Of a DNA stretch of 64,000 nucleotides, positions 3,799 to 59,213 are shown in pieces. The position numbers were made by a program, and so were the translations under genes. Source of the DNA: a virus (taxonomy: Duplodnaviria > Caudoviricetes); the IMG/VR virus record IMGVR_UViG_3300028048_001915, positions 1 to 64,000 of that record; one strand, 5' to 3'. The notes under the pieces are model-generated. The model saw only the letters and a list, made by a program, of their open reading frames with translations. It had not been told where the DNA came from and ran no database searches. Numbering within the stretch: the first letter of the stretch is position 1; each line of letters begins with the position of its first letter.

Positions 3799-3938
3799 AA
3801 ATATCCTTTCTCCTCTTGTCTTGTTTCACGTATCAAGCATTTTTGATTAATTAAGTAACAACATTTTTCTAAGTCATGGCTGCATGTATTTCTTTGGCAG
3901 CAACCTTGACATTCTTGTATTTGTTCTACTTGTTGCAT
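3795..3938 (-). CDS. 47-aa Cys-rich protein (not in the ORF track)
   Basis: AAAGGTGAAGA-ATG start; MQQVEQIQECQGCCQRNTCSHDLEKCCYLINQKCLIRETRQEEKGYL; its TGA overlaps the endolysin ATG (ATGA). Confidence 0.6.
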   Translation of the reverse strand: MQQVEQIQECQGCCQRNTCSHDLEKCCYLINQKCLIRETRQEEKGYL

Positions 3939-4729: not shown

Positions 4730-5173
4730 GTGAAAGAAAACCAAAACACACTAGGCTATAATGTATGGAGTGCAAGCGAATATAAAAACAACCTAGAAGA
4801 TATATACTATATCCCAAACACGGTAAAAGCCAATCCGAGTACCATATGGTCTACTATAGGTGAACAATCACTACATCTAACAACCACTACAGACGGTTTT
4901 CAAGCAGTAATCATTAAACAAATAACCTCAACAAGTAATAAAACTCTAATTGTAAACTGTGATATACTACATCAAAAAGGAGGTACCTGCCAATTAAGAA
5001 TGGTTGAAACAGGAAATATATATACTGAGGTTAATATTCCAGTAAACAGTGATACACAACACATTAGTTTATCCAAACAGACAACAGTAGATGGTACTGT
5101 TCAAGTAATATTAATTTTAAGGAGTAATACTGATGAGATATATATTGATAATATTAGTTTAACTACTAGTTAA
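4730..5173 (+). CDS. Variable cassette 2 (147 aa)
   Basis: VKENQNTLGYNVWSASEY...TIGEQSLHL...YIDNISL. Confidence 0.8.
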   Translation: MKENQNTLGYNVWSASEYKNNLEDIYYIPNTVKANPSTIWSTIGEQSLHLTTTTDGFQAVIIKQITSTSNKTLIVNCDILHQKGGTCQLRMVETGNIYTEVNIPVNSDTQHISLSKQTTVDGTVQVILILRSNTDEIYIDNISLTTS

Positions 5174-5575
5174 CACCATATCATCAATAAATAAATCATC
5201 AGAACCATAATTCAACAAACGAATACGACAATTACTTAAATCACTAAAAGAACCGGATAAACTAAAACTAGTGAAAGAATCAGTTACTGGAATACCAATA
5301 TCGGCCATTATATCATTATTCTGTAACAACCTTAATACTGCAACCGCCCCTGATTTATTTAATATTTTACAAGATAATGTATATTGACCGGTACGTGGTA
5401 GAGAAATTGTTGTATCACTCCACCAACGACTGCTTGTTCTTTTTGCTCTTATAGAATATTCTCCAATGGATGAATATTTGTTTGTTAATTCTGCTTCGTT
5501 GTAAAATCCGTTTATTCCATTATAATCCCCACAACCCCATTGATTATAACTTAGTATGTTATTGGTATCTTTCAC
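5159..5575 (-). CDS. Variable cassette 3 (138 aa)
   Basis: VKDTNNILSYNQWGCGDY...SIGEYSIRA...FIDDMVL; converges on cassette 2. Confidence 0.8.
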   Translation of the reverse strand: MKDTNNILSYNQWGCGDYNGINGFYNEAELTNKYSSIGEYSIRAKRTSSRWWSDTTISLPRTGQYTLSCKILNKSGAVAVLRLLQNNDIMADIGIPVTDSFTSFSLSGSFSDLSNCRIRLLNYGSDDLFIDDMVLTSS

Positions 5576-5581
5576 AGACTA

Positions 5582-6052
5582 TTAATGTAACCTAAAATTG
5601 GTACTGTAAATAGTACCATTACTAACAGATGGCATAATCCGGAATTGTAACTGTGTTTCACCACCAACAAACTCATTTGAATTAATACTTATTGATGGAG
5701 AAGTATTGCTACCGGCGGGAATGGTCAATGTTTTAACAATAGTATTTGTACCTGAAGAAATATTTCTTGCAATGAAATATAATATTACATTTACAGTAGT
5801 GTAAATATCTACCTGCATAGTATAATTCTTATTTGTATTTGGGTTATTATCCATTAATACTATGTATTGAGGATTATCTACTTTTTGCATTATGGAATAC
5901 TCACCAATTGAAGAATAATTATCAGAATAAGTATATCCATCATCATTAGTAGTTGCAGATAATTTGAAATCCTCATATGTTCCCCGCGGTACTTTACCAA
6001 GGTATTCTGGTGTCCATAATTCATGGGGTAGTATATTGTTGGTATCTTTCAC
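5582..6052 (-). CDS. Variable cassette 4 (156 aa)
   Basis: VKDTNNILPHELWTPEY...SIGEYSIMQ...YSTNFRL. Confidence 0.8.
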   Translation of the reverse strand: MKDTNNILPHELWTPEYLGKVPRGTYEDFKLSATTNDDGYTYSDNYSSIGEYSIMQKVDNPQYIVLMDNNPNTNKNYTMQVDIYTTVNVILYFIARNISSGTNTIVKTLTIPAGSNTSPSISINSNEFVGGETQLQFRIMPSVSNGTIYSTNFRLH

Positions 6053-6055
6053 AAA

Positions 6056-6502
6056 CTATACACTTATCAATCTCCAATCATCTGATAAAACATAACCTGA
6101 AGCATTAGATAGTACACGATATACAACAGTAGTGGTTGATGATGGGATACTCATAGACAAAGAAACATCACCAACAAAATCTGATGGAATATTAATATGT
6201 TGGTCTGTCCATTCCTCATTGTTAAATAAACTAATACATAACTTATGGACTCCATTATATGCATTTTTAGTGTTTACATTTACTGTGAACATAACTGTTT
6301 TCCCAACACCCAATGTTCCTCTTGCATCTATATAAAAATTTCCTGTATCTTGTTTTTTTATTTTCATACAAGATTCGCCAATCTCTGAATATTGGTTTGT
6401 TATATCTGATGAGCAGTTTATTTTGGTATAGTCCTTGAGGTTTTCATTATATTCTCCACATGTCCAAATATTATGTGGGAATAGGTTATTGTTATCTTTC
6501 AC
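6056..6502 (-). CDS. Variable cassette 5 (148 aa)
   Basis: VKDNNNLFPHNIWTCGEY...EIGESCMKI...LSDDWRL. Confidence 0.8.
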   Translation of the reverse strand: MKDNNNLFPHNIWTCGEYNENLKDYTKINCSSDITNQYSEIGESCMKIKKQDTGNFYIDARGTLGVGKTVMFTVNVNTKNAYNGVHKLCISLFNNEEWTDQHINIPSDFVGDVSLSMSIPSSTTTVVYRVLSNASGYVLSDDWRLISV

Positions 6503-6960
6503 TAACTTACACTTAATGATATATCATCAACAAATGTAAGACAACCAATATCACCATAATTAGTTATGTTAATCGCATATGTAGTTGCAGTATTATTCGC
6601 AGGAATATTCAGTGATACAGTAACTGGAATATTAGGAGATATTACATCCAGTAAAGTGGAATCTACAATTTCACCATTTGAATTAGTGGAATATAAGATT
6701 ATTGTTGTATTTTTATTAGAGTTAGATAATACTGTTAATTTTCCAGTTACAATACCTGTTAATGTTCCATGATATTCTACTCTGAAACCTGTTTGAGTTG
6801 ATCCTAATTTGGTTGCCTTTAAACTTGATTCCCCGATTTTTGACCAGGTATTTGTTGATTCTCTTCTTGTTCCAATTCCGCCCAGAAATCCAGTTGTACT
6901 TAGAGTATATTCGGTACATGACCATTGGTCATGTGTTAATAGATTACTAGTATCTTTCAC
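6502..6960 (-). CDS. Variable cassette 6 (152 aa)
   Basis: VKDTSNLLTHDQWSCTEY...KIGESSLKA...FVDDISL. Confidence 0.8.
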   Translation of the reverse strand: MKDTSNLLTHDQWSCTEYTLSTTGFLGGIGTRRESTNTWSKIGESSLKATKLGSTQTGFRVEYHGTLTGIVTGKLTVLSNSNKNTTIILYSTNSNGEIVDSTLLDVISPNIPVTVSLNIPANNTATTYAINITNYGDIGCLTFVDDISLSVS

Positions 6961-7400
6961 TAACTTACAGTAATATTAATATCATCAACATAGCAAACAC
7001 CAATATCCATAGAAACAAAGAGTAATCTAATAGAATTAGAATGAGGAGTAAATGAAATAATGTGTTGATTAAAACTTTTATTAACAGGTATATTAGTAAT
7101 TACCACTTCAGATATGTCATTATTATTTTGTAATCTCATATCTAATGAGTTATTATTCGGATTATAAACCATTACTTTTGCAGTTATTGTTTTTTCTTCT
7201 TCAAGTGTAATATCTAAATAGGAATAATTTAATATGGAATTTTTTGTTTTTATTTTATAACTTTTTTCACCATTGTATGATGCATCAGATGAACTATTAA
7301 TTATAATTTCATTATTTCTTGCTTTTAAATCTGATGATATATTATTATATTCTGATCCACTCCAAATATTATATGATAGTAGATTACTGGTATCTTTCAC
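6960..7400 (-). CDS. Variable cassette 7 (146 aa)
   Basis: VKDTSNLLSYNIWSGSEY...YNGEKSYKI...YVDDINI. Confidence 0.8.
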   Translation of the reverse strand: MKDTSNLLSYNIWSGSEYNNISSDLKARNNEIIINSSSDASYNGEKSYKIKTKNSILNYSYLDITLEEEKTITAKVMVYNPNNNSLDMRLQNNNDISEVVITNIPVNKSFNQHIISFTPHSNSIRLLFVSMDIGVCYVDDINITVS

Positions 7401-7849
7401 TAACTTATACTTAAATATAAATCATCAATATACATAGAAGAATATTTATCACCATGATTAGAGAATTGAATTCCAAATCTAGAATTATCATTACCCGAAT
7501 TTAAAGAAACAGTAAATACAGCACAACTACCAGCAGGTATTGTAACTCTATTTGTAGTAATAATATTATTTCCGGAGATTTCAATTAATATTAGTTCACC
7601 AGAATTATTTGTTTTAATCATAGCTGATGCAGTTACTGTTTTATTAATTATACTATTATCATATGATACTCTTGCATATGTACCAGAATCAGCTTTTTTG
7701 GTTAATTTTATTGATTGTTCACCAATACTTGAATAGTCATTTGTACATATACGATCTGTCATGGGTGCTGTATAAAATATTTCAGGATAGTTTTCATATT
7801 CACCAGCACTCCATTGATTATGAGATAGTAAGTTATTGTTATCTTTCAC
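7400..7849 (-). CDS. Variable cassette 8 (149 aa)
   Basis: VKDNNNLLSHNQWSAGEY...SIGEQSIKL...YIDDLYL. Confidence 0.8.
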   Translation of the reverse strand: MKDNNNLLSHNQWSAGEYENYPEIFYTAPMTDRICTNDYSSIGEQSIKLTKKADSGTYARVSYDNSIINKTVTASAMIKTNNSGELILIEISGNNIITTNRVTIPAGSCAVFTVSLNSGNDNSRFGIQFSNHGDKYSSMYIDDLYLSIS

Positions 7850-8298
7850 TAACTTAAACTTATATTATCAATATAAAATGATTTATTCTCAGTACGTGGG
7901 AACACACGAATACTAATATTACCTCCCGAATATATTGATGTATCACCAGTAACACTAATTTCGACAGGCTTATCATTCATTGGAACATTAACATAAGCAA
8001 TATTATGTGCTGTTGTTGTGTGGAATAAATTAATCATTACATCACATTCTGGAGTATATATTATAAATTTACCTGTGATTGTTTTGTTTGGATTAGTTAT
8101 TTTGAATAAATCAATATTGACCCATGAGGGAATGTTTTTTGTTGTTATTTTTAAACTTGATTCTCCAATATTTGAAAAATCGTTTGATTGGTTTATTATG
8201 ATATTGTTTGGGCTGTTATTGTAAATGTTTGTTGTATCGTGATTATACTCTGTAGCTGACCAAACATTATAATCTAATAGGTTATTGTTATCTTTCAC
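7849..8298 (-). CDS. Variable cassette 9 (149 aa)
   Basis: VKDNNNLLDYNVWSATEY...NIGESSLKI...YIDNISL. Confidence 0.8.
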   Translation of the reverse strand: MKDNNNLLDYNVWSATEYNHDTTNIYNNSPNNIIINQSNDFSNIGESSLKITTKNIPSWVNIDLFKITNPNKTITGKFIIYTPECDVMINLFHTTTAHNIAYVNVPMNDKPVEISVTGDTSIYSGGNISIRVFPRTENKSFYIDNISLS

Positions 8299-8738
8299 TA
8301 ACTCACAGTTGAAATAATATTATCAACATACACCGAACCAATACCATCAATAAACATTCTTAAACCCATATTACCATAATTGACTGGGATAACCCCAGTA
8401 ACACTTACATGTTTACTATTATCTGATGGAGGTACAGTTATTGTAGTAATATTAGAATTATTATCACTTTTTAATCTACATCTAACAGATACAGTCGGAT
8501 TATACATAACTAATGAAATAGTAAATGTTTTACCCTCTGTTAGTCCAGTTATTTTTTGCAGTTCCATAAACTCATTTGCCTGCGCACATGTTATTTTTAA
8601 ACTGTTTTCCCCAATACTTGAAAAATCATTAGAGGGTATTAATTGGATATTCTCTGTTTTATCAAAATCATCAGTATTGTTATTGTATTCTGTACATGAC
8701 CATACATTATAATTGTATAGATTATTTGTATCTTTCAC
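8298..8738 (-). CDS. Variable cassette 10 (146 aa)
   Basis: VKDTNNLYNYNVWSCTEY...SIGENSLKI...YVDNIIS. Confidence 0.8.
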   Translation of the reverse strand: MKDTNNLYNYNVWSCTEYNNNTDDFDKTENIQLIPSNDFSSIGENSLKITCAQANEFMELQKITGLTEGKTFTISLVMYNPTVSVRCRLKSDNNSNITTITVPPSDNSKHVSVTGVIPVNYGNMGLRMFIDGIGSVYVDNIISTVS

Positions 8739-35161: not shown

Positions 35162-35485
35162 TTATTCTTCAATCATTACAAATTCAGCTTTATTATTTCC
35201 CGCAACAACAGTTATATTTCCATAATACTGTTCATATCCCTCTTTGATTCCAAGTAATTCATAAGTTCCTACAGGAACATTAGTTATATTACATCCCCCT
35301 GCAGAACCTGTAGTGCCCTCGTATTCATCACCAGTAATTCCATCAGAAACAAGAACATCTACACCTTGTAATGGATTACCTGATTCATCTTTAACAGTTA
35401 CATTAACATTACCTGTTTGAGGAGTATCATCAGTATTATTATTTCCGGTATTTTCAGGATTCCCCTCAAGGACTGGGATCTGCAA
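35162..35485 (-). CDS. Ig-like (carboxypeptidase-regulatory/PEGA-like) domain, probably a frameshift extension of the major capsid protein
   Basis: VTVKDESGNPLQGVDV...TGSAGGCNITNVPVGTYEL; no ATG start; overlaps the capsid gene end in the +1 frame. Confidence 0.6.
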   Translation of the reverse strand: MQIPVLEGNPENTGNNNTDDTPQTGNVNVTVKDESGNPLQGVDVLVSDGITGDEYEGTTGSAGGCNITNVPVGTYELLGIKEGYEQYYGNITVVAGNNKAEFVMIEE

Positions 35486-36428
35486 TACCTGTGATTAAAC
35501 CGTTTTTGTATTCTGCTACGTTTTGAGCAGTAACAAATGATACAATTGCATCACGTGTACCTAATTTGTTAGTTGGTAAATCAGTTAACAAAGTAGGAGC
35601 AAGTAATCTTTTAACTTCAATAGTTGCAGAGTCAACAAATAACATGGAATCTGATTCAAGATTGGAATCAATTAAGATAGGGATTTCTGCACCGTTTGGA
35701 GCTTCGTAAGCTACAACTCTGTGTCCTAAACCAATGTCTATTTTGTCATTGTATCTTCTGTAAGGTGCAACAATCTTTTTAAGTTGTTTAGCAACAAGGT
35801 TAGTAGTTACAATACAATCAGGAGTACCATTATTTTGGTCAATGATGTCAGTTAACATATCATCAATAAGGTCTTCTGTGATTGGTTCGTCAGTTAAAGT
35901 TTCTTTGTTAGTAATAACTTGGTTTACGAAACCTTTGAAATCTTTATCACTAGCAGCACCAGTACCTTGTAAGAGAGTGTTATCTAAATCGTTAGTGACT
36001 TTAATGAAACCATCTTGGATTTCAGATTGGATTAAATCAACAACATTATTACCCATTTGAGATAACATGGAAACATCAATAGGGTAGATTAATGTTTTCA
36101 TTTTCTCCATTCTTTCTTCATAAGATGAAGCTACTGCAGCTGGAATATCATCATCTTCATTAATGAATTGAGATACACCAGAACTGTTTTTCAAGTAGAA
36201 TGCAGCGTAAGTGCTACTGAAGTTATCATCCACTCTTCCTTTTGATTCAAGGAATCTGAAATATGGTGCTTTTTCAAATACACGAGTTTGTAATTCTGGA
36301 CTGTATGCAATTTGCATTGATGCTGGTGCAGCATCAGATAATTGCATAGCTTTCTGTAAATCAGCTATTTGTTTATTTTGTTTTTCGAATTCAGCTTGGA
36401 TTTCTTTCATGGTTAATTCTTCGGTCAT
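35466..36428 (-). CDS. Major capsid protein (HK97 fold)
   Basis: 320 aa after the protease; E.DDIP...SY...KTL...DVS.L...DLDNTLLQGTG...FKGF pattern. Confidence 0.85.
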   Translation of the reverse strand: MTEELTMKEIQAEFEKQNKQIADLQKAMQLSDAAPASMQIAYSPELQTRVFEKAPYFRFLESKGRVDDNFSSTYAAFYLKNSSGVSQFINEDDDIPAAVASSYEERMEKMKTLIYPIDVSMLSQMGNNVVDLIQSEIQDGFIKVTNDLDNTLLQGTGAASDKDFKGFVNQVITNKETLTDEPITEDLIDDMLTDIIDQNNGTPDCIVTTNLVAKQLKKIVAPYRRYNDKIDIGLGHRVVAYEAPNGAEIPILIDSNLESDSMLFVDSATIEVKRLLAPTLLTDLPTNKLGTRDAIVSFVTAQNVAEYKNGLITGIADPSP

Positions 36429-36496: not shown

Positions 36497-37648
36497 TTAT
36501 AATAATGATTTAATCAAGTCTTCTTTGGTTTGTTTAGCAACTAACATTTCAGCTGCTTCACGACTTGTGAATTGGTCTTTTTTAGAATCATTATCTTGGG
36601 TTTTCACAGTATCTTCATCATATTGGAACTCAGGGTCACGTTTATCAGATAAATCTTTAAATAATTTACCCATTTGTTCTGATACTGCTTTGTCAACAGT
36701 TGATTTAACTGTTTCAGTTACATCTACTTCTGGAATCATTTCTTTGATTTCAGATTTCATAGATTCTAATTCAGAATGGAATAATCCTTTAATATCATCT
36801 AATGCGATAGATTTTTCTTCCTCAGGTTTTTCCTCTTCTTCATCTACTTCTGCTTCAGGAGTTTCTTCAACTTCTTCCTCAGGTTTTTCCTCTTCTTCTT
36901 CAGATGCAGATTTAATAGCATCTTTAACAATTTTTTCTAATTGTTTAGAAACTGATTGAACAGTATCATTTTTAATTTCCTCTTTCATAGGAATTAATGC
37001 TTCATTGATTAAATCCTTAACATCTTCTTTAGTTAAAGTTTCTATTTCATTTTCGGCCATATTATCAACCTCATTTTTCATAATTGTATAACATGCACCA
37101 GTCAAACAAGTAGATTTAACTAATCCTTTGCTTGTAGTGATGGTTCCATAGGTGTCCCAGTTAGCAGGCATACCTGTTAAGGAGATTTCACGTAAGGTGA
37201 TGTCTTTAATTTCCCACCCACCATCTTCAAGTTGGGTGTGTTCAGTTACTCTCCCTCCAATAGACAATCCGAGTTTAACTCCAATATCTAACATGTCTCT
37301 GATTTCATTGGCATATTTCGGCAATATTTTAGCTTTAATTCTTAAAGAATAAGCATCAGTATCTATTACCCCAGTGATTGCTCCAATGATACCATCGAAC
37401 AATCCATACCAATGATCACCATGCAAGTTTAAACCTGCTTGCAATTGTCTTTTCATTGACTCAATTGCAGATGGAGTTACTATGTCATCTTGAAGGTCTT
37501 TATTTGTTGTTGAAGCTATTCCTTCTATTGTTAATGAACCGTCCTCATTGAGAGTATAACTTTTTGTGGTGTCCGGATAGATTTGAGGACGTGCATAGAG
37601 TTGGAATTGCTTATCTAAGACTTCAGTTGTCATAATATTTGTTTCCAC
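36497..37648 (-). CDS. Prohead protease with acidic scaffold C-terminus
   Basis: IEGIASTTNKDLQDD...LHGDH...GLSIGG...EISLTGMPAN motifs. Confidence 0.85.
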   Translation of the reverse strand: METNIMTTEVLDKQFQLYARPQIYPDTTKSYTLNEDGSLTIEGIASTTNKDLQDDIVTPSAIESMKRQLQAGLNLHGDHWYGLFDGIIGAITGVIDTDAYSLRIKAKILPKYANEIRDMLDIGVKLGLSIGGRVTEHTQLEDGGWEIKDITLREISLTGMPANWDTYGTITTSKGLVKSTCLTGACYTIMKNEVDNMAENEIETLTKEDVKDLINEALIPMKEEIKNDTVQSVSKQLEKIVKDAIKSASEEEEEKPEEEVEETPEAEVDEEEEKPEEEKSIALDDIKGLFHSELESMKSEIKEMIPEVDVTETVKSTVDKAVSEQMGKLFKDLSDKRDPEFQYDEDTVKTQDNDSKKDQFTSREAAEMLVAKQTKEDLIKSLL

Positions 37649-37682
37649 AATCTAATTTTTTTTACATACTATTTTTTTTAAA

Positions 37683-37752
37683 TGGTTAGTGGGTTTCAGG
37701 GTTTGAACCTGTATTTTTTTTAAAAAATGAAGATTAATTTTTTTTAACCCAC
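37683..37752 (-). ncRNA. tRNA-like element A (acceptor stem + T-arm)
   Basis: GTGGGTT...(A/T-rich insert)...CAGG-TTCAAAC-CCTG-A-AACCCAC-TAACCA. Confidence 0.45.
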
Positions 37753-37779
37753 ATGCAAAAAAGGAATAAAAAAGTATAT

Positions 37780-37832
37780 CTTATTTTTAATTTTAGGGGA
37801 GGACCACCTCTCCCTAAAATATTAAAAATAAG
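37780..37832. other. Long imperfect inverted repeat
   Basis: CTTATTTTTAATTTTAGGGGAGG-ACCA-CCTCTCCCTAAAATATTAAAAATAAG. Confidence 0.7.
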
Positions 37833-38093
37833 AAAAATTTTGTTTTAAAACACATACATAGAGAGATATTTTAAAAAATGAAAAAATCGCACAAAAAAAA
37901 ATTATTCATTTTTTTTATAGTGTTTCTTCTTTTATTTTTTTTTTTATTTTAGCAAAAAAATATGGTAAACAATGAACAGGGTTTTTTTTTAGAGATAATA
38001 AAAGAACCTGTCTTTTGTTTTTGGTTTTAGTTAATGTTTTTTTTTTGGCATTAATAAAGGAAGTGAAAAAAATGCATTAACCTATTTTTAAAC

Positions 38094-38139
38094 GGTAGGT
38101 GGGATTTAGGAATCGAACCTAAACAAAGATGTTCCCACC
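38094..38139 (-). ncRNA. tRNA-like element B (minihelix: 7-bp acceptor + T-arm, no D or anticodon arm)
   Basis: GGTGGGA-ACATCTTTG-TTTAGG-TTCGATT-CCTAAA-TCCCACC-T; canonical G-TTCGA-C T-loop. Confidence 0.6.
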
Positions 38140-38362
38140 ATTAGTGACAAATAATAAAATATTTTTTTTTGATAAGGGAGAAAAAAAAGAAAGGAGGAAA
38201 AAATATAATTTAATAAAAATTGAAAAAAATAATTAATGGCTGAGCTATGTGTAAAAGAATAAGTTTTTCAAATTTTTTTTATTATTTTCTTTTCTTTTTT
38301 AAAACTCCCAAAATATGGTGACATAATATGAAAACTAAATATTTTTATAAAAAAAATTAAAA

Positions 38363-38614
38363 TTAAGTTGTCATAACTGAATCTTCAGTAATAATATTTA
38401 AAACTTCAAATATATCTTCAAAATAAGCTCCAAAAGTATATCTTTCACCATCAAAAGTGATAAGGACATTTCTAAGTTCATCCTTAAAAGTCCATTTATG
38501 AACATTATCTTCTAAAGAATATTCTGCATCTTGCCAATAATCATCTATCATATTATATGATAACCATTCAGGGCATGTGATGTTTTCTTTATCAAATAAT
38601 TCTTTAACAAACAT
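38363..38614 (-). CDS. Small acidic protein; candidate immunity protein (start revised to 38614)
   Basis: GAGGA SD then ATG 38614 (MFVKELFDKENITCPEW...); directly follows the MuF gene. Confidence 0.55.
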   Translation of the reverse strand: MFVKELFDKENITCPEWLSYNMIDDYWQDAEYSLEDNVHKWTFKDELRNVLITFDGERYTFGAYFEDIFEVLNIITEDSVMTT

Positions 38615-38618
38615 AAAA

Positions 38619-40457
38619 TTATTCCTCATTAAATTTTTTAGTGAAATATTCATAATGTTTTGGATATAATTGTTTATATTCTTCAAAGTTAATATCTTTT
38701 GTTATTTTGCCTTCATCAGCATAATATTGGATTGTAATCTTTTTCTTTTGTTCAGTAGGATTTGCTAACATATAACTAATATATCCACCATGTTCAGCAT
38801 AAGATTCTTCTCTTGCAGTATTTGCATACCATGTGAAACCAGGTAAATCATCTTTATTTTCTGATTTCAAATGAATCTTAGAATATTCATCAGTATAGCA
38901 ATTTCTAATATGATTATTATCATCCCACTCTTTTTTTGTCTGATCCATACTATGAGTGAATTCATGATGAATAGTTTTTTTCCAGGAAGTTATCATATCC
39001 TCTTCTTGATTCCACAAGAAAGCATATCTTCCTTTACCTCCACCTTTGAAGTATTTAGGATTAATCACAATCCTATGATTGAAATCTTCTTGTTCTGGAA
39101 CAAAACGTTTACTTGCCATTTGCGAGTATGAATTATATCCTGCAGTTGTTTGGTCAAAAGAATCATAACCAGATTTAGTTGGCCTATGAATAATACCTTG
39201 ACTAGTATTTTTAAACCATATTTCACGAGTTTCATTTCTTAAAACTAGAGGTACTTTGAATACTTCATGTATAATCTCGTTTGGAGTAGCTATTCCTTTT
39301 TTTAAATATGATTTAACCGCACCTTCTTCAAAACGTAACACAAAGTCACGTCCATCATCAAAGGTTTCTACAAATTTATGGTATTTTTTACCATCATAAT
39401 CATAAGTTTCTAATCCTTGATAATCAATACCATGGAATTTAGCTAATTCATCGAAAGTGAAATTGTTTAATTGTTCTAATGATAAGCTTTCATTTAATAT
39501 TACTGATGGTGTATCTTGTGGTGGAGTATTAGTGAATACTTGTTCCCAATCATTGATTGGTGTTAAGTTAACAGTGAATGGAACATTCTCTGATGGCTTA
39601 ACCTTACTCTCCCAAACAGACAAGTAAGTGCAACGGCAATGAGGATGAAACGGTGGATAAGCACCACCTTTAATCAAATCACGAATATTATGAACTCTCT
39701 CATCACCACGATTCTCAAAGATAATCTTATCATCTTTATTAAACTCATAAGCATATCGTAAACATAAAGTACAAACATTATCATCTTCAGCAGTTAACAA
39801 TTTAACTTCTGTATAACCCTCATTAACATAAGACTGTAATATACCAGTATTTTGTATACGGCTTATTTCAGTACGAGCTATCATTGTAGCTCTTTGTCTT
39901 GGAGTGAATGTACTTCCAGGTAATTGAGTAACACCTAACTCTAATAATTTAGGTGCAAGACTTAAAGGATTCTCGCCTTCAATAGCTGCACGAGTCAATC
40001 TATTCTTGATGGCTCCTCTTAAATCATCATTTAATCTTTGAATCAGACCATAATTATAATTTCGTGCAAATGCAAAAGCTAAACGGTCAGTGTCAGTGTA
40101 TCTTAAATGTTCGGCAATGTTACTATATCCTTTGGCTTTACCATAATCATATATTTCTTGGAGTAATCCATCAATAGTTTCATATTTACCTGATAATATG
40201 TTATCCCATTCTTCATCCAATGACTCCCATATTTCTTGTTGGTAATATGCTTCGTTGAAGAAGAATTCTTTAGCTTCAGGACTATCAATCCATTTTACAC
40301 TGGCTTGTAATGTATCATCTATTTGTTGTGAGATTAATCTGTAATATTTCATTAGTTGGATATTATCTTTTAGACTTTTTTCCGTGAACTCTTCCTCGAG
40401 TTCTAGGTCTTCAATTAGTAATTGGTTGGTTAATATCCTATCTTCTGATGAAATCAT
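38619..40457 (-). CDS. MuF / SPP1 gp7-like head morphogenesis protein with C-terminal HExxH metallopeptidase-like extension
   Basis: RATMIARTEISR...DDNVCTLC...PPFHPHCRC (MuF) followed by about 330 aa containing IHHEFTHSMD and REESYAE. Confidence 0.8.
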   Translation of the reverse strand: MISSEDRILTNQLLIEDLELEEEFTEKSLKDNIQLMKYYRLISQQIDDTLQASVKWIDSPEAKEFFFNEAYYQQEIWESLDEEWDNILSGKYETIDGLLQEIYDYGKAKGYSNIAEHLRYTDTDRLAFAFARNYNYGLIQRLNDDLRGAIKNRLTRAAIEGENPLSLAPKLLELGVTQLPGSTFTPRQRATMIARTEISRIQNTGILQSYVNEGYTEVKLLTAEDDNVCTLCLRYAYEFNKDDKIIFENRGDERVHNIRDLIKGGAYPPFHPHCRCTYLSVWESKVKPSENVPFTVNLTPINDWEQVFTNTPPQDTPSVILNESLSLEQLNNFTFDELAKFHGIDYQGLETYDYDGKKYHKFVETFDDGRDFVLRFEEGAVKSYLKKGIATPNEIIHEVFKVPLVLRNETREIWFKNTSQGIIHRPTKSGYDSFDQTTAGYNSYSQMASKRFVPEQEDFNHRIVINPKYFKGGGKGRYAFLWNQEEDMITSWKKTIHHEFTHSMDQTKKEWDDNNHIRNCYTDEYSKIHLKSENKDDLPGFTWYANTAREESYAEHGGYISYMLANPTEQKKKITIQYYADEGKITKDINFEEYKQLYPKHYEYFTKKFNEE

Positions 40458-44336: not shown

Positions 44337-44634
44337 CTTCTTCACCCACTGCATCACTGGTATTAATACTATCATATCCTGCAGCAGGATCAACTGTTTC
44401 ATTTAACTTCGCTTCATAATTTTCAATTGCCATTTGTTCAGCCACATCAACACGTGTGTTTTCTGTTGATTGAACTATAATGTAACCTGCAATCCATACT
44501 ATGAATGGTGCTAAGTATGCGAATTGTTCGGGGAGTATTTGTGCTAATGCATCTTTCCCTAAATATGATATTGCTCCTGCGATGAATACTATTGCATTCG
44601 CTGCTTTACTTTTATATTTATATGTTTGTGTCAT
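44326..44634 (-). CDS. Holin-like membrane protein
   Basis: Two hydrophobic helices (AANAIVFIAGAISYLG; FAYLAPFIVWIAGYIIV) and a charged C-terminus. Confidence 0.55.
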   Translation of the reverse strand: MTQTYKYKSKAANAIVFIAGAISYLGKDALAQILPEQFAYLAPFIVWIAGYIIVQSTENTRVDVAEQMAIENYEAKLNETVDPAAGYDSINTSDAVGEEDAY

Positions 44635-54871: not shown

Positions 54872-56605
54872 TTATTTTCCTATTGGAATTTTCACTTTCC
54901 TACGTTTACGAGTAACATCCAAACCATCAATAGCTTCCAAGAAATACTCATTAAACAAATACCTATAATTAGATAATAAACTTTCAAAATCCGCATCTAA
55001 AACATAAGTAATACAATAATCATCCATATCACGTATACCTCTACCATAAGCCTGCATTAATGGCATGATAGTTTGATACATATACCAGGATAAATCATAT
55101 CTTTTACGAATGTTGATCTGTTTTCCTGCAAGACTTGGGAAAGGCATTTTATATAATATTTGGAATCTGCATTTATCACCTTTAAAATCAACTCCATCTT
55201 TTACACCCGCACCTATGAGTATTGTTGGTTTGCGACTTTTTTCGAATTGTTCGATGAATTTGCTGCGGTCTTTTCCTCCAGCTATCATTATTTTATGAGT
55301 GGTGGATAATTCTTGTTTTAACCACCATGCTTGTTGGTTGCTGGATACATGGATTACTCCTTTTTCGTTTTTGTGTTTGTCGAGTATTTCTTCGATTTTG
55401 TTTAATCCGTTAATGTTTTTCCAGTTTCCTCGTTTCATATTCCCCACATAGTCTCTGATTATAGGCCTATTCTTACGTGGGAATGGTGATTTTACGTATA
55501 TGTAGTATGTTTTTTCTGGGTTGAGTCCTATCCAGTAGCAGAATTTTTCTTTGTTTCCTAATGTTCCTGTCATGAATAGTCTTGTTCCTCCGAAGTGTAG
55601 GAGTGTTTCACTGTAGTCTTTTATCATTAATGGTTTGAATTCTGCTTTTAATCCGATATGATAATCGTCTTGTTGGATCTCTTTTTTGGTTGGTATTTCG
55701 ATGATTAAACTATTGTCTTTTAATTGTTTTCGTAACTCTTCAAATTGGTTAATTTTTCTTTCATAATGATTTAATGTATCATCATTGAAAGAATCTGATA
55801 TGCTCATGTTTTCACGGCCACCATAAGTTTCATTAATATACCTTGTGAATTGGATTTTTGTTTCATTGATTAATTTTTCACATACTCCAATCCAGTATAA
55901 TGGACCTTCCATTTTCTTTAAAGTTAAACCATGTTCTAAACCATCAAAAATATCAAAATCATAATCTTTTTTAATGGTTTTACGATTCAATGTTACTGTT
56001 ACTAATTGCATTACTTTTTTCTCAAAATTATGAGTTTCATCCAAGATTAACAAGTCTCTTTCAGGTAATGCTTGTGCAAAGTTTCCAGCATAATATAAAT
56101 AATCATAGTTAGTGATTATTGCTGGTGAAAGTAATGCTTCCTGTATTGCTTGATTGTATGGGCAGTCTCCACATTTTTTAGGTTTTTTAGGTTTCTCCGG
56201 TGCAGCATATTTTCCAGGATTTTGTTTATGTTTTTTTAATGCTATACTGTAGCTTTCTAACATTTTTTGGTATTGTTCGTTAATGTTACATGGTTCGCAG
56301 GAGCCATCATAATTACATGGGTAATTACTTCTTCCTTTGATTTCTTTTAACATATCTTTGAAATCATGTAGGTATTGTTCCTGGAGTTGGTTTGTCATTG
56401 TGCAAATGTATGTAGTTTCGAAGTAGTTTGCTATAGTTGTTGCAATAGCGGATTTTCCTACTCCGGTTCCTGCTTCCAGAATAATATTTTCATATCCTTT
56501 ATTGATTGCTGTTAATATTTCATCAATAATTTTTTCTTGTTCTGGTCTTGGATTATATCCTTTTAAACTCCATTTTTCCATATTCATTATTTTTTCACCT
56601 CCCAT
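54872..56605 (-). CDS. DinG/XPD (Rad3-related) SF2 helicase
   Basis: ILEAGTGVGKS, ILDETHN, MTGT, DGVDFKGDKCRFQILYKMPFP, QAYGRGIRDMDD; Cys cluster. Confidence 0.9.
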   Translation of the reverse strand: MGGEKIMNMEKWSLKGYNPRPEQEKIIDEILTAINKGYENIILEAGTGVGKSAIATTIANYFETTYICTMTNQLQEQYLHDFKDMLKEIKGRSNYPCNYDGSCEPCNINEQYQKMLESYSIALKKHKQNPGKYAAPEKPKKPKKCGDCPYNQAIQEALLSPAIITNYDYLYYAGNFAQALPERDLLILDETHNFEKKVMQLVTVTLNRKTIKKDYDFDIFDGLEHGLTLKKMEGPLYWIGVCEKLINETKIQFTRYINETYGGRENMSISDSFNDDTLNHYERKINQFEELRKQLKDNSLIIEIPTKKEIQQDDYHIGLKAEFKPLMIKDYSETLLHFGGTRLFMTGTLGNKEKFCYWIGLNPEKTYYIYVKSPFPRKNRPIIRDYVGNMKRGNWKNINGLNKIEEILDKHKNEKGVIHVSSNQQAWWLKQELSTTHKIMIAGGKDRSKFIEQFEKSRKPTILIGAGVKDGVDFKGDKCRFQILYKMPFPSLAGKQINIRKRYDLSWYMYQTIMPLMQAYGRGIRDMDDYCITYVLDADFESLLSNYRYLFNEYFLEAIDGLDVTRKRRKVKIPIGK

Positions 56606-57078
56606 TCTGTTGGGTAATTTTCTTTTACGTATTGCCAGTCATCGAATAGTTGTTGTTGATCTTTTAGGTCATGTGTGTAATCTTGGTATGCGTCGAATAG
56701 TATGTCTTCGAGTTCTTCTTCATCTTTGATTTCAAGTATTTTCATTACTTCTTCCATGTCTCTTGGGTCTGGTTTTCCTCCTCCTCGGTATGGTGCCCAG
56801 ATTCTTAGCCATGCATCACTGTTTTTCTTGTTTCTGATTTTTTCTTCCATGTTTTCTTCATAGTAGGTGTCTTCGAGGAGTAGGTAGATTTTCATTTTTG
56901 CCATGTTCATTGCTTTTTGTTGTTCTAGTAGTTCTGCTCCCCTTTGTTCTCCGTTTTTGTCTGTGTAGTCTAACCATGATTCTAGGCATTCGGTGAAGAA
57001 TTTGCTTAGGTTTGGTATGTGTTTTTTTGCGATTGTTAGTAAGTCTTCATCGATTGATAATTTGATATCTTTTTTCAT
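56587..57078 (-). CDS. Protein with an N-terminal ribbon-helix-helix-like DNA-binding domain
   Basis: MKKDIKLSIDEDLLTIAKKHIPNLSKFFTECL. Confidence 0.5.
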   Translation of the reverse strand: MKKDIKLSIDEDLLTIAKKHIPNLSKFFTECLESWLDYTDKNGEQRGAELLEQQKAMNMAKMKIYLLLEDTYYEENMEEKIRNKKNSDAWLRIWAPYRGGGKPDPRDMEEVMKILEIKDEEELEDILFDAYQDYTHDLKDQQQLFDDWQYVKENYPTEWEVKK

Positions 57079-57154
57079 TTTTTTCCACTTCCTTTTTTTA
57101 ATACTTTTTTGTTTTTTAGTAATACACTCGTGAAGGGTTTAACCCCTACAATCC

Positions 57155-57195
57155 AAATACGACCGTACGGTCATAACGGTCGTACGACCGTATTT
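57155..57195. promoter_or_regulatory. GC-rich tandem palindromes; candidate replication origin or protein-binding site
   Basis: GACCGTACGGTC (57161-57172) and ACGGTCGTACGACCGT (57176-57191) are both perfect palindromes, flanked by AAATAC...GTATTT. Confidence 0.5.
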
Positions 57196-57236
57196 CAGTA
57201 TACCCCCTATATAGCGAATTCGGTGTAAAATAAATT

Positions 57237-59213
57237 TTACAAAATACTCTTCCTAACATTAGAAACAGCCTCCTCAAAAATCATATCCAAATCACAACTC
57301 CTACTCTTACAAATAGGACCCAATTCCATACGAACATCAGACAAAACACCATCATCCAAAATACCATCATTCATCTGAATACGAGCACGTAACATCCTCT
57401 CAGCATCATTAACAACCAACATCTCACTATCAGACCACACATGCTCCAACACACCCGCAGTCTCAGGAGACAAACCAATAGACTCCAAAGCCTTACTATA
57501 AATACGAATAGCATTACGAGCATCATCAACACTAACAACATCAGACAAACGAGTCTTAGCCTTAGCAATACTCAAACGCTCAATAGCCTTCAAATCCCTA
57601 GCAGTAATAGGCTTAGCAGAATCATCACCCTGAGCAACATTACGAGTACTAACATAAAATTCAGTTAACAAAACCTTAGCCTCATCAGACAAAACCGGAA
57701 AACACTCCATCTTAGCATAAGTAATATACTTCTTAAAACACTCATCAGACAAAGCCTCAACATCATTAACAAACCGCTCCTTATTCAACAAATTAGTAGC
57801 TAACTCACGGTCTTTCTTTTCATCAATAATATCTTCTAAAGCAAAAACCAAATCAAACCTAGATAAATTACTATCTGGAATATCAATCTGTTCTTTCACA
57901 GTCTTGTAACGATTAAACTTACTATATTTCGGATTAGCACAAGCTAAAATACTTGTACGGGCACTCATATTCTGAACCAAACCTGCTTTGGCAGAAGATA
58001 CAGACAATTGTTCCATAGGCTCATTCAAAGACTTCTGAGTACCCGCACTAAGCTTATCATATTCATCAATACATAACAAACCAGTATCTGCTAAGACAAC
58101 AGCACCTGCTTCCATAGCCCAAGTACCAGTCAATTCATCTTTAACAGCAGACACAGTTAAACCGGCTTTACTTGTACTTGTACCAGCAATACTGATAATT
58201 TTAGGTGCACGCTGATTAACCGCAGATATAATTTGTGATTTACCAATACCTGGATCACCAATTAATAAAATATGAATTGTCCACCTATCCATTTGACTAG
58301 TTTTAACACTATCATTAGATGGTCTAGCACCCTCAAATAATTGCAACAATAAACCTTCCTTAACAGTATCATAACCATAAATCTCAGGAGCTAAAGTACC
58401 AACTAATCTATCATAAATATCCTCTTGTTGAGATAGTTCATGAATCATTTTTTTATCAGATTCAGTAATCCTATAATCCTCAAAAGCATCATCAACAGGA
58501 GCAATATTATGCAAGTTAATCATGAATTCAAACTCATTCTTATTAGGTTCACTTTTCTCAATATCAAACTTACCAAAAATATCACAAACATCACCAGCTT
58601 TTAATTTATGCTGAGGTGAAGCTAAATAATCAGTCATATAACCTTTGAACTCACGACTAACACCACCTTGACGGAATTCCAAAGGTTCTTCTAATTTAAC
58701 ATATCGAGTATTTTTAAAAGTGCTGCTTTCAGTTAATAATCTGAAAGATCTACCCCCACATTCATTACATAATGAAGGCACAACAACACTTTTACTATTA
58801 GACATATCAATATAATGTAAACGCATACAACCTCTACATTCAAAAGCAGCTTTTTCAATCTCAACATGTATTGGAGTGATATTTTTAATCATAGCTTTAG
58901 TACTGATTAAATCACCATTATATGTTGTATCCAAGTCATGTAAGAGTACATTTGGAGGTATGTCAACTAATTTAAAAGTGATATGGTGTTTTTCACTTCG
59001 GTTTTTATTCACTTTTTCTTCAGCGTAAGCTAACATTGCTTCCCATGATAAATCAAAAAGATTTTTATCTAAAAGTTCTAAAAAGAAGTTATTAACCAAA
59101 GTATAATCTATATTTACTTTGGTTTGTGTCTTACACTCTTTAGCATAAGCCAATTCTTCTTTATAGTTTTCTTTTATGAAGTTCATGAAAAGTTTTTTGG
59201 GATTAGCACCCAT
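57237..59213 (-). CDS. mcm: MCM replicative helicase
   Basis: Zn finger CRGC...CNEC, HILLIGDPGIGKSQ, LTVSAVKD, CIDEYDK, ILACANP, SRFDL, ITARDL. Confidence 0.95.
   Translation of the reverse strand: MGANPKKLFMNFIKENYKEELAYAKECKTQTKVNIDYTLVNNFFLELLDKNLFDLSWEAMLAYAEEKVNKNRSEKHHITFKLVDIPPNVLLHDLDTTYNGDLISTKAMIKNITPIHVEIEKAAFECRGCMRLHYIDMSNSKSVVVPSLCNECGGRSFRLLTESSTFKNTRYVKLEEPLEFRQGGVSREFKGYMTDYLASPQHKLKAGDVCDIFGKFDIEKSEPNKNEFEFMINLHNIAPVDDAFEDYRITESDKKMIHELSQQEDIYDRLVGTLAPEIYGYDTVKEGLLLQLFEGARPSNDSVKTSQMDRWTIHILLIGDPGIGKSQIISAVNQRAPKIISIAGTSTSKAGLTVSAVKDELTGTWAMEAGAVVLADTGLLCIDEYDKLSAGTQKSLNEPMEQLSVSSAKAGLVQNMSARTSILACANPKYSKFNRYKTVKEQIDIPDSNLSRFDLVFALEDIIDEKKDRELATNLLNKERFVNDVEALSDECFKKYITYAKMECFPVLSDEAKVLLTEFYVSTRNVAQGDDSAKPITARDLKAIERLSIAKAKTRLSDVVSVDDARNAIRIYSKALESIGLSPETAGVLEHVWSDSEMLVVNDAERMLRARIQMNDGILDDGVLSDVRMELGPICKSRSCDLDMIFEEAVSNVRKSIL

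Follow-up and report, generated by a model that had tools for sequence, protein, structure and literature searches.

The acceptor/T-arm half of a tRNA is the part recognised by RNase P, tRNase Z and the CCA-adding enzyme. Processing of longer RNAs at tRNA-like folds is already documented for plant mitochondria, the Haloferax 5S rRNA precursor and vertebrate MALAT1. In Haloferax volcanii, a tRNA-like structure (t-element) lies within a longer transcript upstream of the 5S rRNA (Hoelzle et al. 2008, 2012, as summarised in PMC4326828); such archaeal t-elements are cleaved in vivo by RNase P and tRNase Z, which in this way also free an RNA flanked by two of them (PMC4326828). Plant mitochondrial t-elements, identified via the motif GGTTCRANYCC, are likewise non-canonical tRNA-like structures; they are found at 5′ or 3′ message ends, which they define, and share this task with real tRNAs (PMC1920247). 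RNase P, which recognises the T stem-loop and the acceptor stem, also generates the 3′ end of MALAT1 at a tRNA-like fold, and in the mascRNA/MEN-beta family (RF01684), where an acceptor stem plus T-arm mimic stands at the 3′ end of a long RNA, it makes the 3′ end of the upstream RNA while a small tRNA-like RNA is released (PMC3001073). Finally, pre-tRNAs without a D, T or anticodon arm are still cleaved by methanogen RNase Z, for which the acceptor stem and prior maturation of the 5′ end are essential and the discriminator is irrelevant (PMC7479834).

We analyzed a 64-kb stretch of viral DNA (hereafter the window), whose late operon holds three tRNA-like elements, termed A, B and D. These do not form a new category, as t-elements are known from plant mitochondria and Haloferax, and the two-t-element arrangement of Haloferax has the same geometry as A, spacer and B. 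However, the Haloferax t-elements are cellular and haloarchaeal and those of plants are organellar, mostly fuller cloverleaves with experimentally mapped ends, whereas the elements of the window are viral and belong to a late morphogenesis operon of methanogen viruses. They are also reduced in a way unlike the Haloferax t-elements, to a bare top half of 40–42 nt (A) or to a top half with a long insert (B and D). MascRNA, which is vertebrate and nuclear, retains a short anticodon-like stem that element A lacks. The layout of B and D, with paired ends, a T-arm and a large insert, is that of the tRNA-like domain of tmRNA and of the bacterial/phage Y RNA YrlA, although B and D are devoid of a tag reading frame or Ro-binding helix, and neither tmRNA nor Y RNA was reported by ARAGORN or Rfam. 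To our knowledge, no tmRNA is known in archaea.

The window makes up the opening 64 kb of an IMG/VR virus record of 87,267 bp (∼30% G+C), which was rated complete by CheckV, and its genes lie on the minus strand. Its best neighbours in phage collections are Caudoviricetes assigned to Methanobacteriales, homologues of its protease locus are present in Methanobrevibacter assemblies, and an MCM helicase (57237–59213, minus strand; PF00493, E = 3e-73) is encoded in a replication module (54872–59213), which together identify a head-tailed virus of a methanogen. The same module encodes a superfamily-2 helicase (54872–56605, minus strand), and this combination fits an archaeal virus. Elsewhere in the window (5159–8738, minus strand), there is a tandem array of eight head-to-tail ORFs of 138–156 aa, most of which start with GTG. 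The elements A and B both lie within a gap of the head-gene region, which is organised as follows.

38619–40457, minus strand: MuF-like minor head protein, upstream of the gap
38363–38686, minus strand: small ORF after MuF in the ORF list, from a TTG start
37649–38362: 714-nt gap between the MuF/83-aa genes and the protease gene, with no ORF of at least 40 aa on either strand
36497–37648, minus strand: S78 prohead protease/scaffold with probable ATG at 37633, downstream of the gap
35466–36428, minus strand: SU10-type major capsid protein, downstream of the gap

The small ORF after MuF is 83 aa long by gene call on the identical contig L205, and the sole other contig carrying the exact protease sequence in public assemblies (Logan SRR8442993) covers the whole gap. 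The MuF-like protein bears a long C-terminal extension with a weak, below-threshold match to the zinc metallopeptidase family PF15890 (E = 4e-4), and the end of the capsid gene is overlapped by an ORF (35162–35485, minus strand; TTG as its only start) matching the carboxypeptidase-regulatory-like beta-sandwich PF13620 (E = 6e-12). The first-pass annotation had placed a tRNA minihelix in the head-gene operon, a placement borne out by the common minus-strand orientation of the MuF, S78 protease and SU10-type capsid genes; element A lies on the same strand as all flanking genes. The interval annotated at that time, 38094–38139, does contain the element but includes three trailer bases beyond the discriminator. 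Read on the coding strand, element A is composed of the following parts.

38139–38098, minus (coding) strand, plus discriminator at 38097: element A, tRNA top-half minihelix of 42 nt
38139–38133, minus strand: acceptor 5′ strand GGTGGGA
38132–38124, minus strand: 9-nt linker ACATCTTTG
38123–38118, minus strand: T-arm 5′ strand TTTAGG
38117–38111, minus strand: T-loop TTCGATT
38110–38105, minus strand: T-arm 3′ strand CCTAAA
38104–38098, minus strand: acceptor 3′ strand TCCCACC
38097, minus strand: discriminator T (U in the RNA)

The architecture described earlier (a 7-bp stem, a 6-bp arm with a T-loop and a 9-nt linker) was confirmed both in the sequence and by folding with ViennaRNA, in which it is the minimum free energy structure as well as the centroid (−16.1 kcal/mol, z = −3.08 relative to 200 shuffles); the acceptor-like stem GGUGGGA/UCCCACC pairs without mismatch. 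Against an expectation of 0.23, the window has two copies of the T-arm motif GGTTCRAWNCC, each within the 714-nt gap, and element A bears the t-element motif GGTTCRANYCC as GGTTCGATTCC. Using a strict descriptor that combines a 7-bp stem, a 5-bp T stem and the T-loop consensus, we obtained three matches in the 87-kb genome, namely element A, element D and a tRNA-Leu(UAG), compared to a mean of 0.4 in 20 shuffles. This tRNA-Leu(UAG), located outside the window (74627–74714, plus strand), is the one real tRNA of the virus.

Standard annotation tools pass over element A. ARAGORN reported no tRNA in the window and none at the element in related loci, and no Rfam family reached its gathering score in the window, element A being without a match to the tRNA model RF00005 even at E ≤ 10 and the window copy of A without a match to the mascRNA-menRNA model RF01684. 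Lacking a D arm, an anticodon arm and an anticodon, element A is not an RF00005-type cloverleaf and, in common with t-elements, is not a decoding tRNA, the D and anticodon arms being replaced by the 9-nt linker. The T stem is 5 bp long in relatives, and the window virus has one additional U-A pair, inserted on both strands. The resulting stack measures 13 bp (7+6), compared to the canonical 12 and to 7+5 in the relatives, which could shift or weaken any cleavage of element A. A mini-ORF was also considered, as every A-type copy has AT immediately before it and can be read as ATG-GTG-G; the frame stops after 11 codons here and after 3 in relative L060, and this reading was rejected since the frame is not conserved.

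The other two elements, together with the spacer separating A from B, are located as follows.

37752–37688, minus strand: element B (Rfam tRNA model, 23 bits, E = 0.04; our model R2, 65.2 bits)
44847–44670, minus strand: element D, found with the strict descriptor
37753–38096, minus strand: ORF-free spacer between A and B, 344 nt, no ORF of at least 40 aa
37791–37819, minus strand: hairpin with GGAGAGG-UGGU-CCUCC core, ∼40 nt upstream of B

Element B is formed by the acceptor stem GUGGGUU/AACCCAC, a 34-nt A/U-rich linker, a 4-bp T stem plus an A.A, the loop UUCAAAC and a U discriminator; its RF00005 score of 23 bits is below the gathering score of 29 bits, and it ends 55 nt upstream of the protease ATG at 37633. 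Element D is composed of the acceptor stem GGUGAUG/CAUCACC, the T-arm UCAGG-UGCAAAC-CCUGA, a 146-nt A/U-rich insert and an A discriminator, and a distance of 36 nt separates its end from the first packaging-module ORF (start at 44634). It is kept in L203/L204 with a longer insert and a compensatory change of the T stem to UCCGG/CCGGA.

To establish how widely such elements are distributed, the protease was used as query to collect ∼80 loci from viral, metagenome and genome collections, which were oriented with the protease on the plus strand and screened with the descriptor and two covariance models (R1 and R2). In ∼20 distinct Methanobrevibacter viruses or proviruses, some of whose proteases share only 37–50% identity, one or more top-half elements precede the protease, in each case on the coding strand. 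No element was detected at about half of the protease-homologous loci, indicating that the element is non-essential for the head module. Three types were distinguished.

Type A: linker of 8–10 nt, AAUCUUKG; 340–650 nt before the protease; stems GGUGGGA, GGUGGAA, GGUGGGU
Type B: A/U-rich linker of 26–77 nt; ends 30–55 nt before the protease ATG; stems GUGGGUU, GUGGGAU
Type C (L046/L047/L049): D-arm-like hairpin with GG in its loop, without an anticodon arm; adjoins the upstream stop; stem UCAACUA

Across type A, eight different T stems are found, each paired with its exact complement, and the linker AAUCUUKG is conserved in sequence. The L047 copy of type C scores 39 bits on the Rfam tRNA model, above threshold, and in L070 the slot directly upstream of the protease is occupied by a true tRNA-Leu(UAG) (L070:164–248). 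One slot thus shows a graded series from a tRNA, through a form without the anticodon arm and a bare top half, to a top half with an insert. The L070 arrangement resembles tRNA punctuation in mitochondria and tRNA-mRNA co-transcripts, and the tRNA has the same U(−1) context as the elements; unlike the punctuating tRNAs, element A cannot decode.

A scan of IMG/VR for the A-type pattern yielded 82 matches, nearly all of which were long-variable-arm tRNAs or coding sequence; the complementary 3′ strand was present only in the known virus group and one variant (L159). An A-type candidate at L011 was discarded as a chance match in GC-rich coding DNA. Two of the loci, L060 and L061, lie ∼77 kb apart on a single Methanobrevibacter MAG contig (JAFUBV010000001.1, 130,604 bp) and have identical A and B elements; this contig may be a concatemer of a ∼77-kb virus genome and not a chromosome with two proviruses.

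The graded series is what would also be expected if the elements were decaying tRNA genes, that is, functionless relics: a real tRNA-Leu stands in the L070 slot, type C resembles a tRNA minus the anticodon arm alone, and the interior of B is degenerate A/U. We consider such an origin without function very unlikely, because compensatory changes keep the stems paired while the spacer has diverged past alignment, the T-loop is retained, and the elements persist across viruses as distant as indicated above.

These compensatory changes were evaluated in alignments of the A-type (8 sequences) and B-type (15 sequences) copies, covariation in related viruses having been proposed in the first-pass annotation as a check of the minihelix. 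In the A alignment, 99% of cells are paired and both sides have changed in 5 of the 12 pairs; the alignment score was reached by none of 500 shuffles, and no slid register came near. The B alignment is 94% paired, with both-side changes in 3/12 pairs. The proposed check thus returned compensatory changes for both types. Coding-strand scores of model R1 ranged from 56 to 74 bits (55.9 bits at the window copy), the reverse strand never exceeding 17 bits, and the few G.U pairs of both alignments are found in the coding sense only. Furthermore, between the window and its closest relative, L004 (protease 81% identical), the spacer cannot be aligned except for islands: A, B, one hairpin, the ribosome-binding region and, ahead of A, a short block rich in T and A. 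Taken together, the covariation, the islands, the strand bias of R1 and the coding-sense G.U pairs suggest that an RNA is selected for its shape, rather than a DNA site.

This bears directly on a role at the DNA level, whether as an att fragment derived from a host tRNA gene, as an anchor for recombination around an exchangeable cassette, or as a cruciform or the target of a DNA-binding protein. Integration at tRNA genes is common among archaeal proviruses, and the A–B interval is wholly different between clades while A and B persist, as expected for cassette anchors. Nevertheless, such a role appears highly improbable to us, as both the T-loop consensus and the G.U pairs belong to one strand only and an att fragment would not need the 5′ acceptor strand. 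Moreover, pattern searches of five host assemblies revealed no tRNA bearing the acceptor and T-arm of A or B, the provirus element aside, and among 151 host-family genomes strong R1 matches were confined to the provirus. The site also lies in the middle of the head module, and intact head modules in host contigs suggest that the provirus junctions are elsewhere. Weak R1 matches (24–30 bits) in six other genomes were dismissed as chance, being inside coding sequence.

Given selection on RNA shape, we favour, with moderate confidence, a reading in which element A is a viral t-element that would be cut by host RNase P and tRNase Z, setting the ends of late RNAs. Several features of the family, along with the published enzymology, point to such a role in tRNA-end processing. 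First, a U occupies position −1 throughout (A, 9/9; B, 15/15; C, 3/3; and D), mostly preceded by A, and this context is the same at two real viral tRNA genes. Second, shape is kept over identity: any of the four bases can be the discriminator among A-type copies, acceptor sequences show no relationship between types A, B, C and D, and CCA is inconsistently encoded. The free discriminator and the unrelated acceptor sequences make recognition by a particular aminoacyl-tRNA synthetase unlikely, and without conserved identity elements or a 3′-terminal CCA the family does not qualify as aminoacylatable minihelices. Third, the A- and C-types retain the partners of the tRNA elbow contact (C56 of the T-loop, and GG or UG in the linker or D-loop), while the B-type has neither. 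Fourth, the elements are close to stop and start codons. Type C begins 3–6 nt after the upstream stop codon or overlaps it, type A begins 14–39 nt after the stop in L067/L023/L066, and elements of type B and D end 30–55 nt before start codons, so that the elements would most simply be parts of the flanking messages.

In the proposed mechanism, sense-strand transcription would make A part of the late RNA. The 5′ side of A would be cleaved by host RNase P between U(−1) (38140) and G1 (38139), after which tRNase Z would cut behind the discriminator (38097/38096). Both cuts at A would detach the terminase-portal-MuF message from the downstream RNA, leaving the 42-nt minihelix as a by-product. B would act likewise 55 nt before the protease start codon, as would D 36 nt before the first packaging-module ORF, and the late messages would thereby gain defined ends. 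From the arrangement described above we infer that A is co-transcribed and cut at both ends, as well as any consequence for the stability or dosage of the messages. The 223-nt A/T-rich stretch upstream of A has several sense-strand runs of 7–8 T, which could terminate archaeal transcription before A; if they did, A would depend on a promoter of its own. TATA-like strings are found upstream of A and B, but at varying distances, and are no guide to promoter positions in DNA of ∼75% A+T.

The same positions could be accounted for by uncleaved end caps that shield message ends from exonucleases, the elements then being stabilisers and not cut sites. B and D would cap 5′ ends, possibly of transcripts initiated at G1, directly behind the conserved −1 pyrimidine, and A and type C would cap 3′ ends, perhaps after trimming and CCA addition. 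The location of B and D 36–55 nt before start codons and of A and C just past stop codons agrees with this, as does the fit of U(−1)/G(+1) to a pyrimidine-purine archaeal initiator. In addition, a terminator-like hairpin with a run of six or seven T follows type C within 5 nt, and a T run follows most A-type copies at 15–35 nt (in L069 and L024 it is short or lacking). Still, a tRNA fold with an intact T-loop is a substrate of RNase P and RNase Z (PMC7479834, PMC4326828), and remaining uncut would require special protection. A plain hairpin would suffice as a cap, yet the T-loop consensus is conserved, and a consistently placed upstream TATA box was not seen. Overall, we regard end caps as an unlikely explanation.

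The first-pass annotation had itself suggested a late-RNA processing signal or else a small tRNA mimic acting as a decoy. Of these two, comparative evidence best supports the former, and the decoy found no specific support. In its general form, the latter idea holds that the released minihelices are functional, titrating or misdirecting a host factor that binds the acceptor/T-arm half, with a tRNA-targeting defence nuclease, the CCA-adding enzyme, an elongation factor or a modification enzyme as candidate targets. We judge this improbable. The shape is conserved across many viruses, and the A-type linker shows more sequence conservation than would seem necessary for a mere cut signal; furthermore, the top Rfam model for the L023 copy is mascRNA (21 bits, E = 0.12), which is sub-threshold relative to the gathering score of 42.5, the copy not being a member of that family. 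On the other hand, the inserts of B (26–77 nt) and D (at least 146 nt) are long, variable and A/U-rich, which is not what a defined effector RNA would show, an anticodon is lacking, and neither acceptor sequence nor discriminator is constant. The elements are also located in the late structural operon and not among early genes, and a Pfam scan of 20 viral proteins revealed no tRNA-processing or other tRNA-related enzyme.

A variant of the processing-signal reading, which we consider quite unlikely, would make A and B handles for excising a late non-coding RNA that acts in head assembly or packaging, or would have CCA-tagged minihelices act on a tRNA-binding factor of the host. In the former case, RNase Z cleavage after A and RNase P cleavage before B would free an interval of 310–500 nt (344 nt here), and phi29 prohead RNA would be a counterpart in spirit of this proposed archaeal late non-coding RNA. 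The candidate excised RNA carries the UGGU-loop hairpin in the window, and a 27-nt block in most A-type relatives. The hairpin core is identical in L004 (∼3805–3825) and also occurs in L060 (∼2830–2850). YGGU-loop hairpins with different stems are found downstream of A in L023/L066/L067/L018, L069 and L024 (GAC-UGGU-GUC, GAG-UGGU-CUC and GAG-CGGU-CUC).

If the elements are cut as proposed, head-tailed viruses of gut and rumen methanogens would borrow the tRNA-maturation machinery of the host for their late messages. In the literature searched, no paper linking tRNA-like elements, archaeal viruses and RNase P was found. The graded series in one slot amounts to a natural experiment on the minimal shape needed by RNase P and tRNase Z. 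As no Rfam family covers the elements and they are invisible to tRNA finders, the stretches that they occupy stay blank and unexplained in virus annotations; such elements could be annotated with R1 and R2, the covariance models of this analysis.

With respect to the A–B interval of the relatives, an invariant block, CCCAGAGTAAACTGGG, followed by ..A.CAAATCC, is present in every A-type relative outside the window/L004/L060 clade and is without counterpart in the window. Its 27 nt are located at the following positions.

L023:2566–2592, 27-nt block
L067:2555–2581, 27-nt block
L066:2630–2656, 27-nt block
L018:2627–2653, 27-nt block
L069:2658–2684, 27-nt block
L024:2552–2578, 27-nt block

The consensus fold of the block contains an invariant 5-bp hairpin with no covariation, and the block is therefore probably an RNA motif or a site for sequence-specific binding. 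In the window itself, the 3′ halves of A and B and the ∼13-nt trailer CCCACYWACCRTTTAAAAA that follows (38085–38120 and 37675–37710) are 78% identical without gaps. The trailers are alike here, unlike in L004, which suggests sequence exchange between A and B in the lineage of the window.
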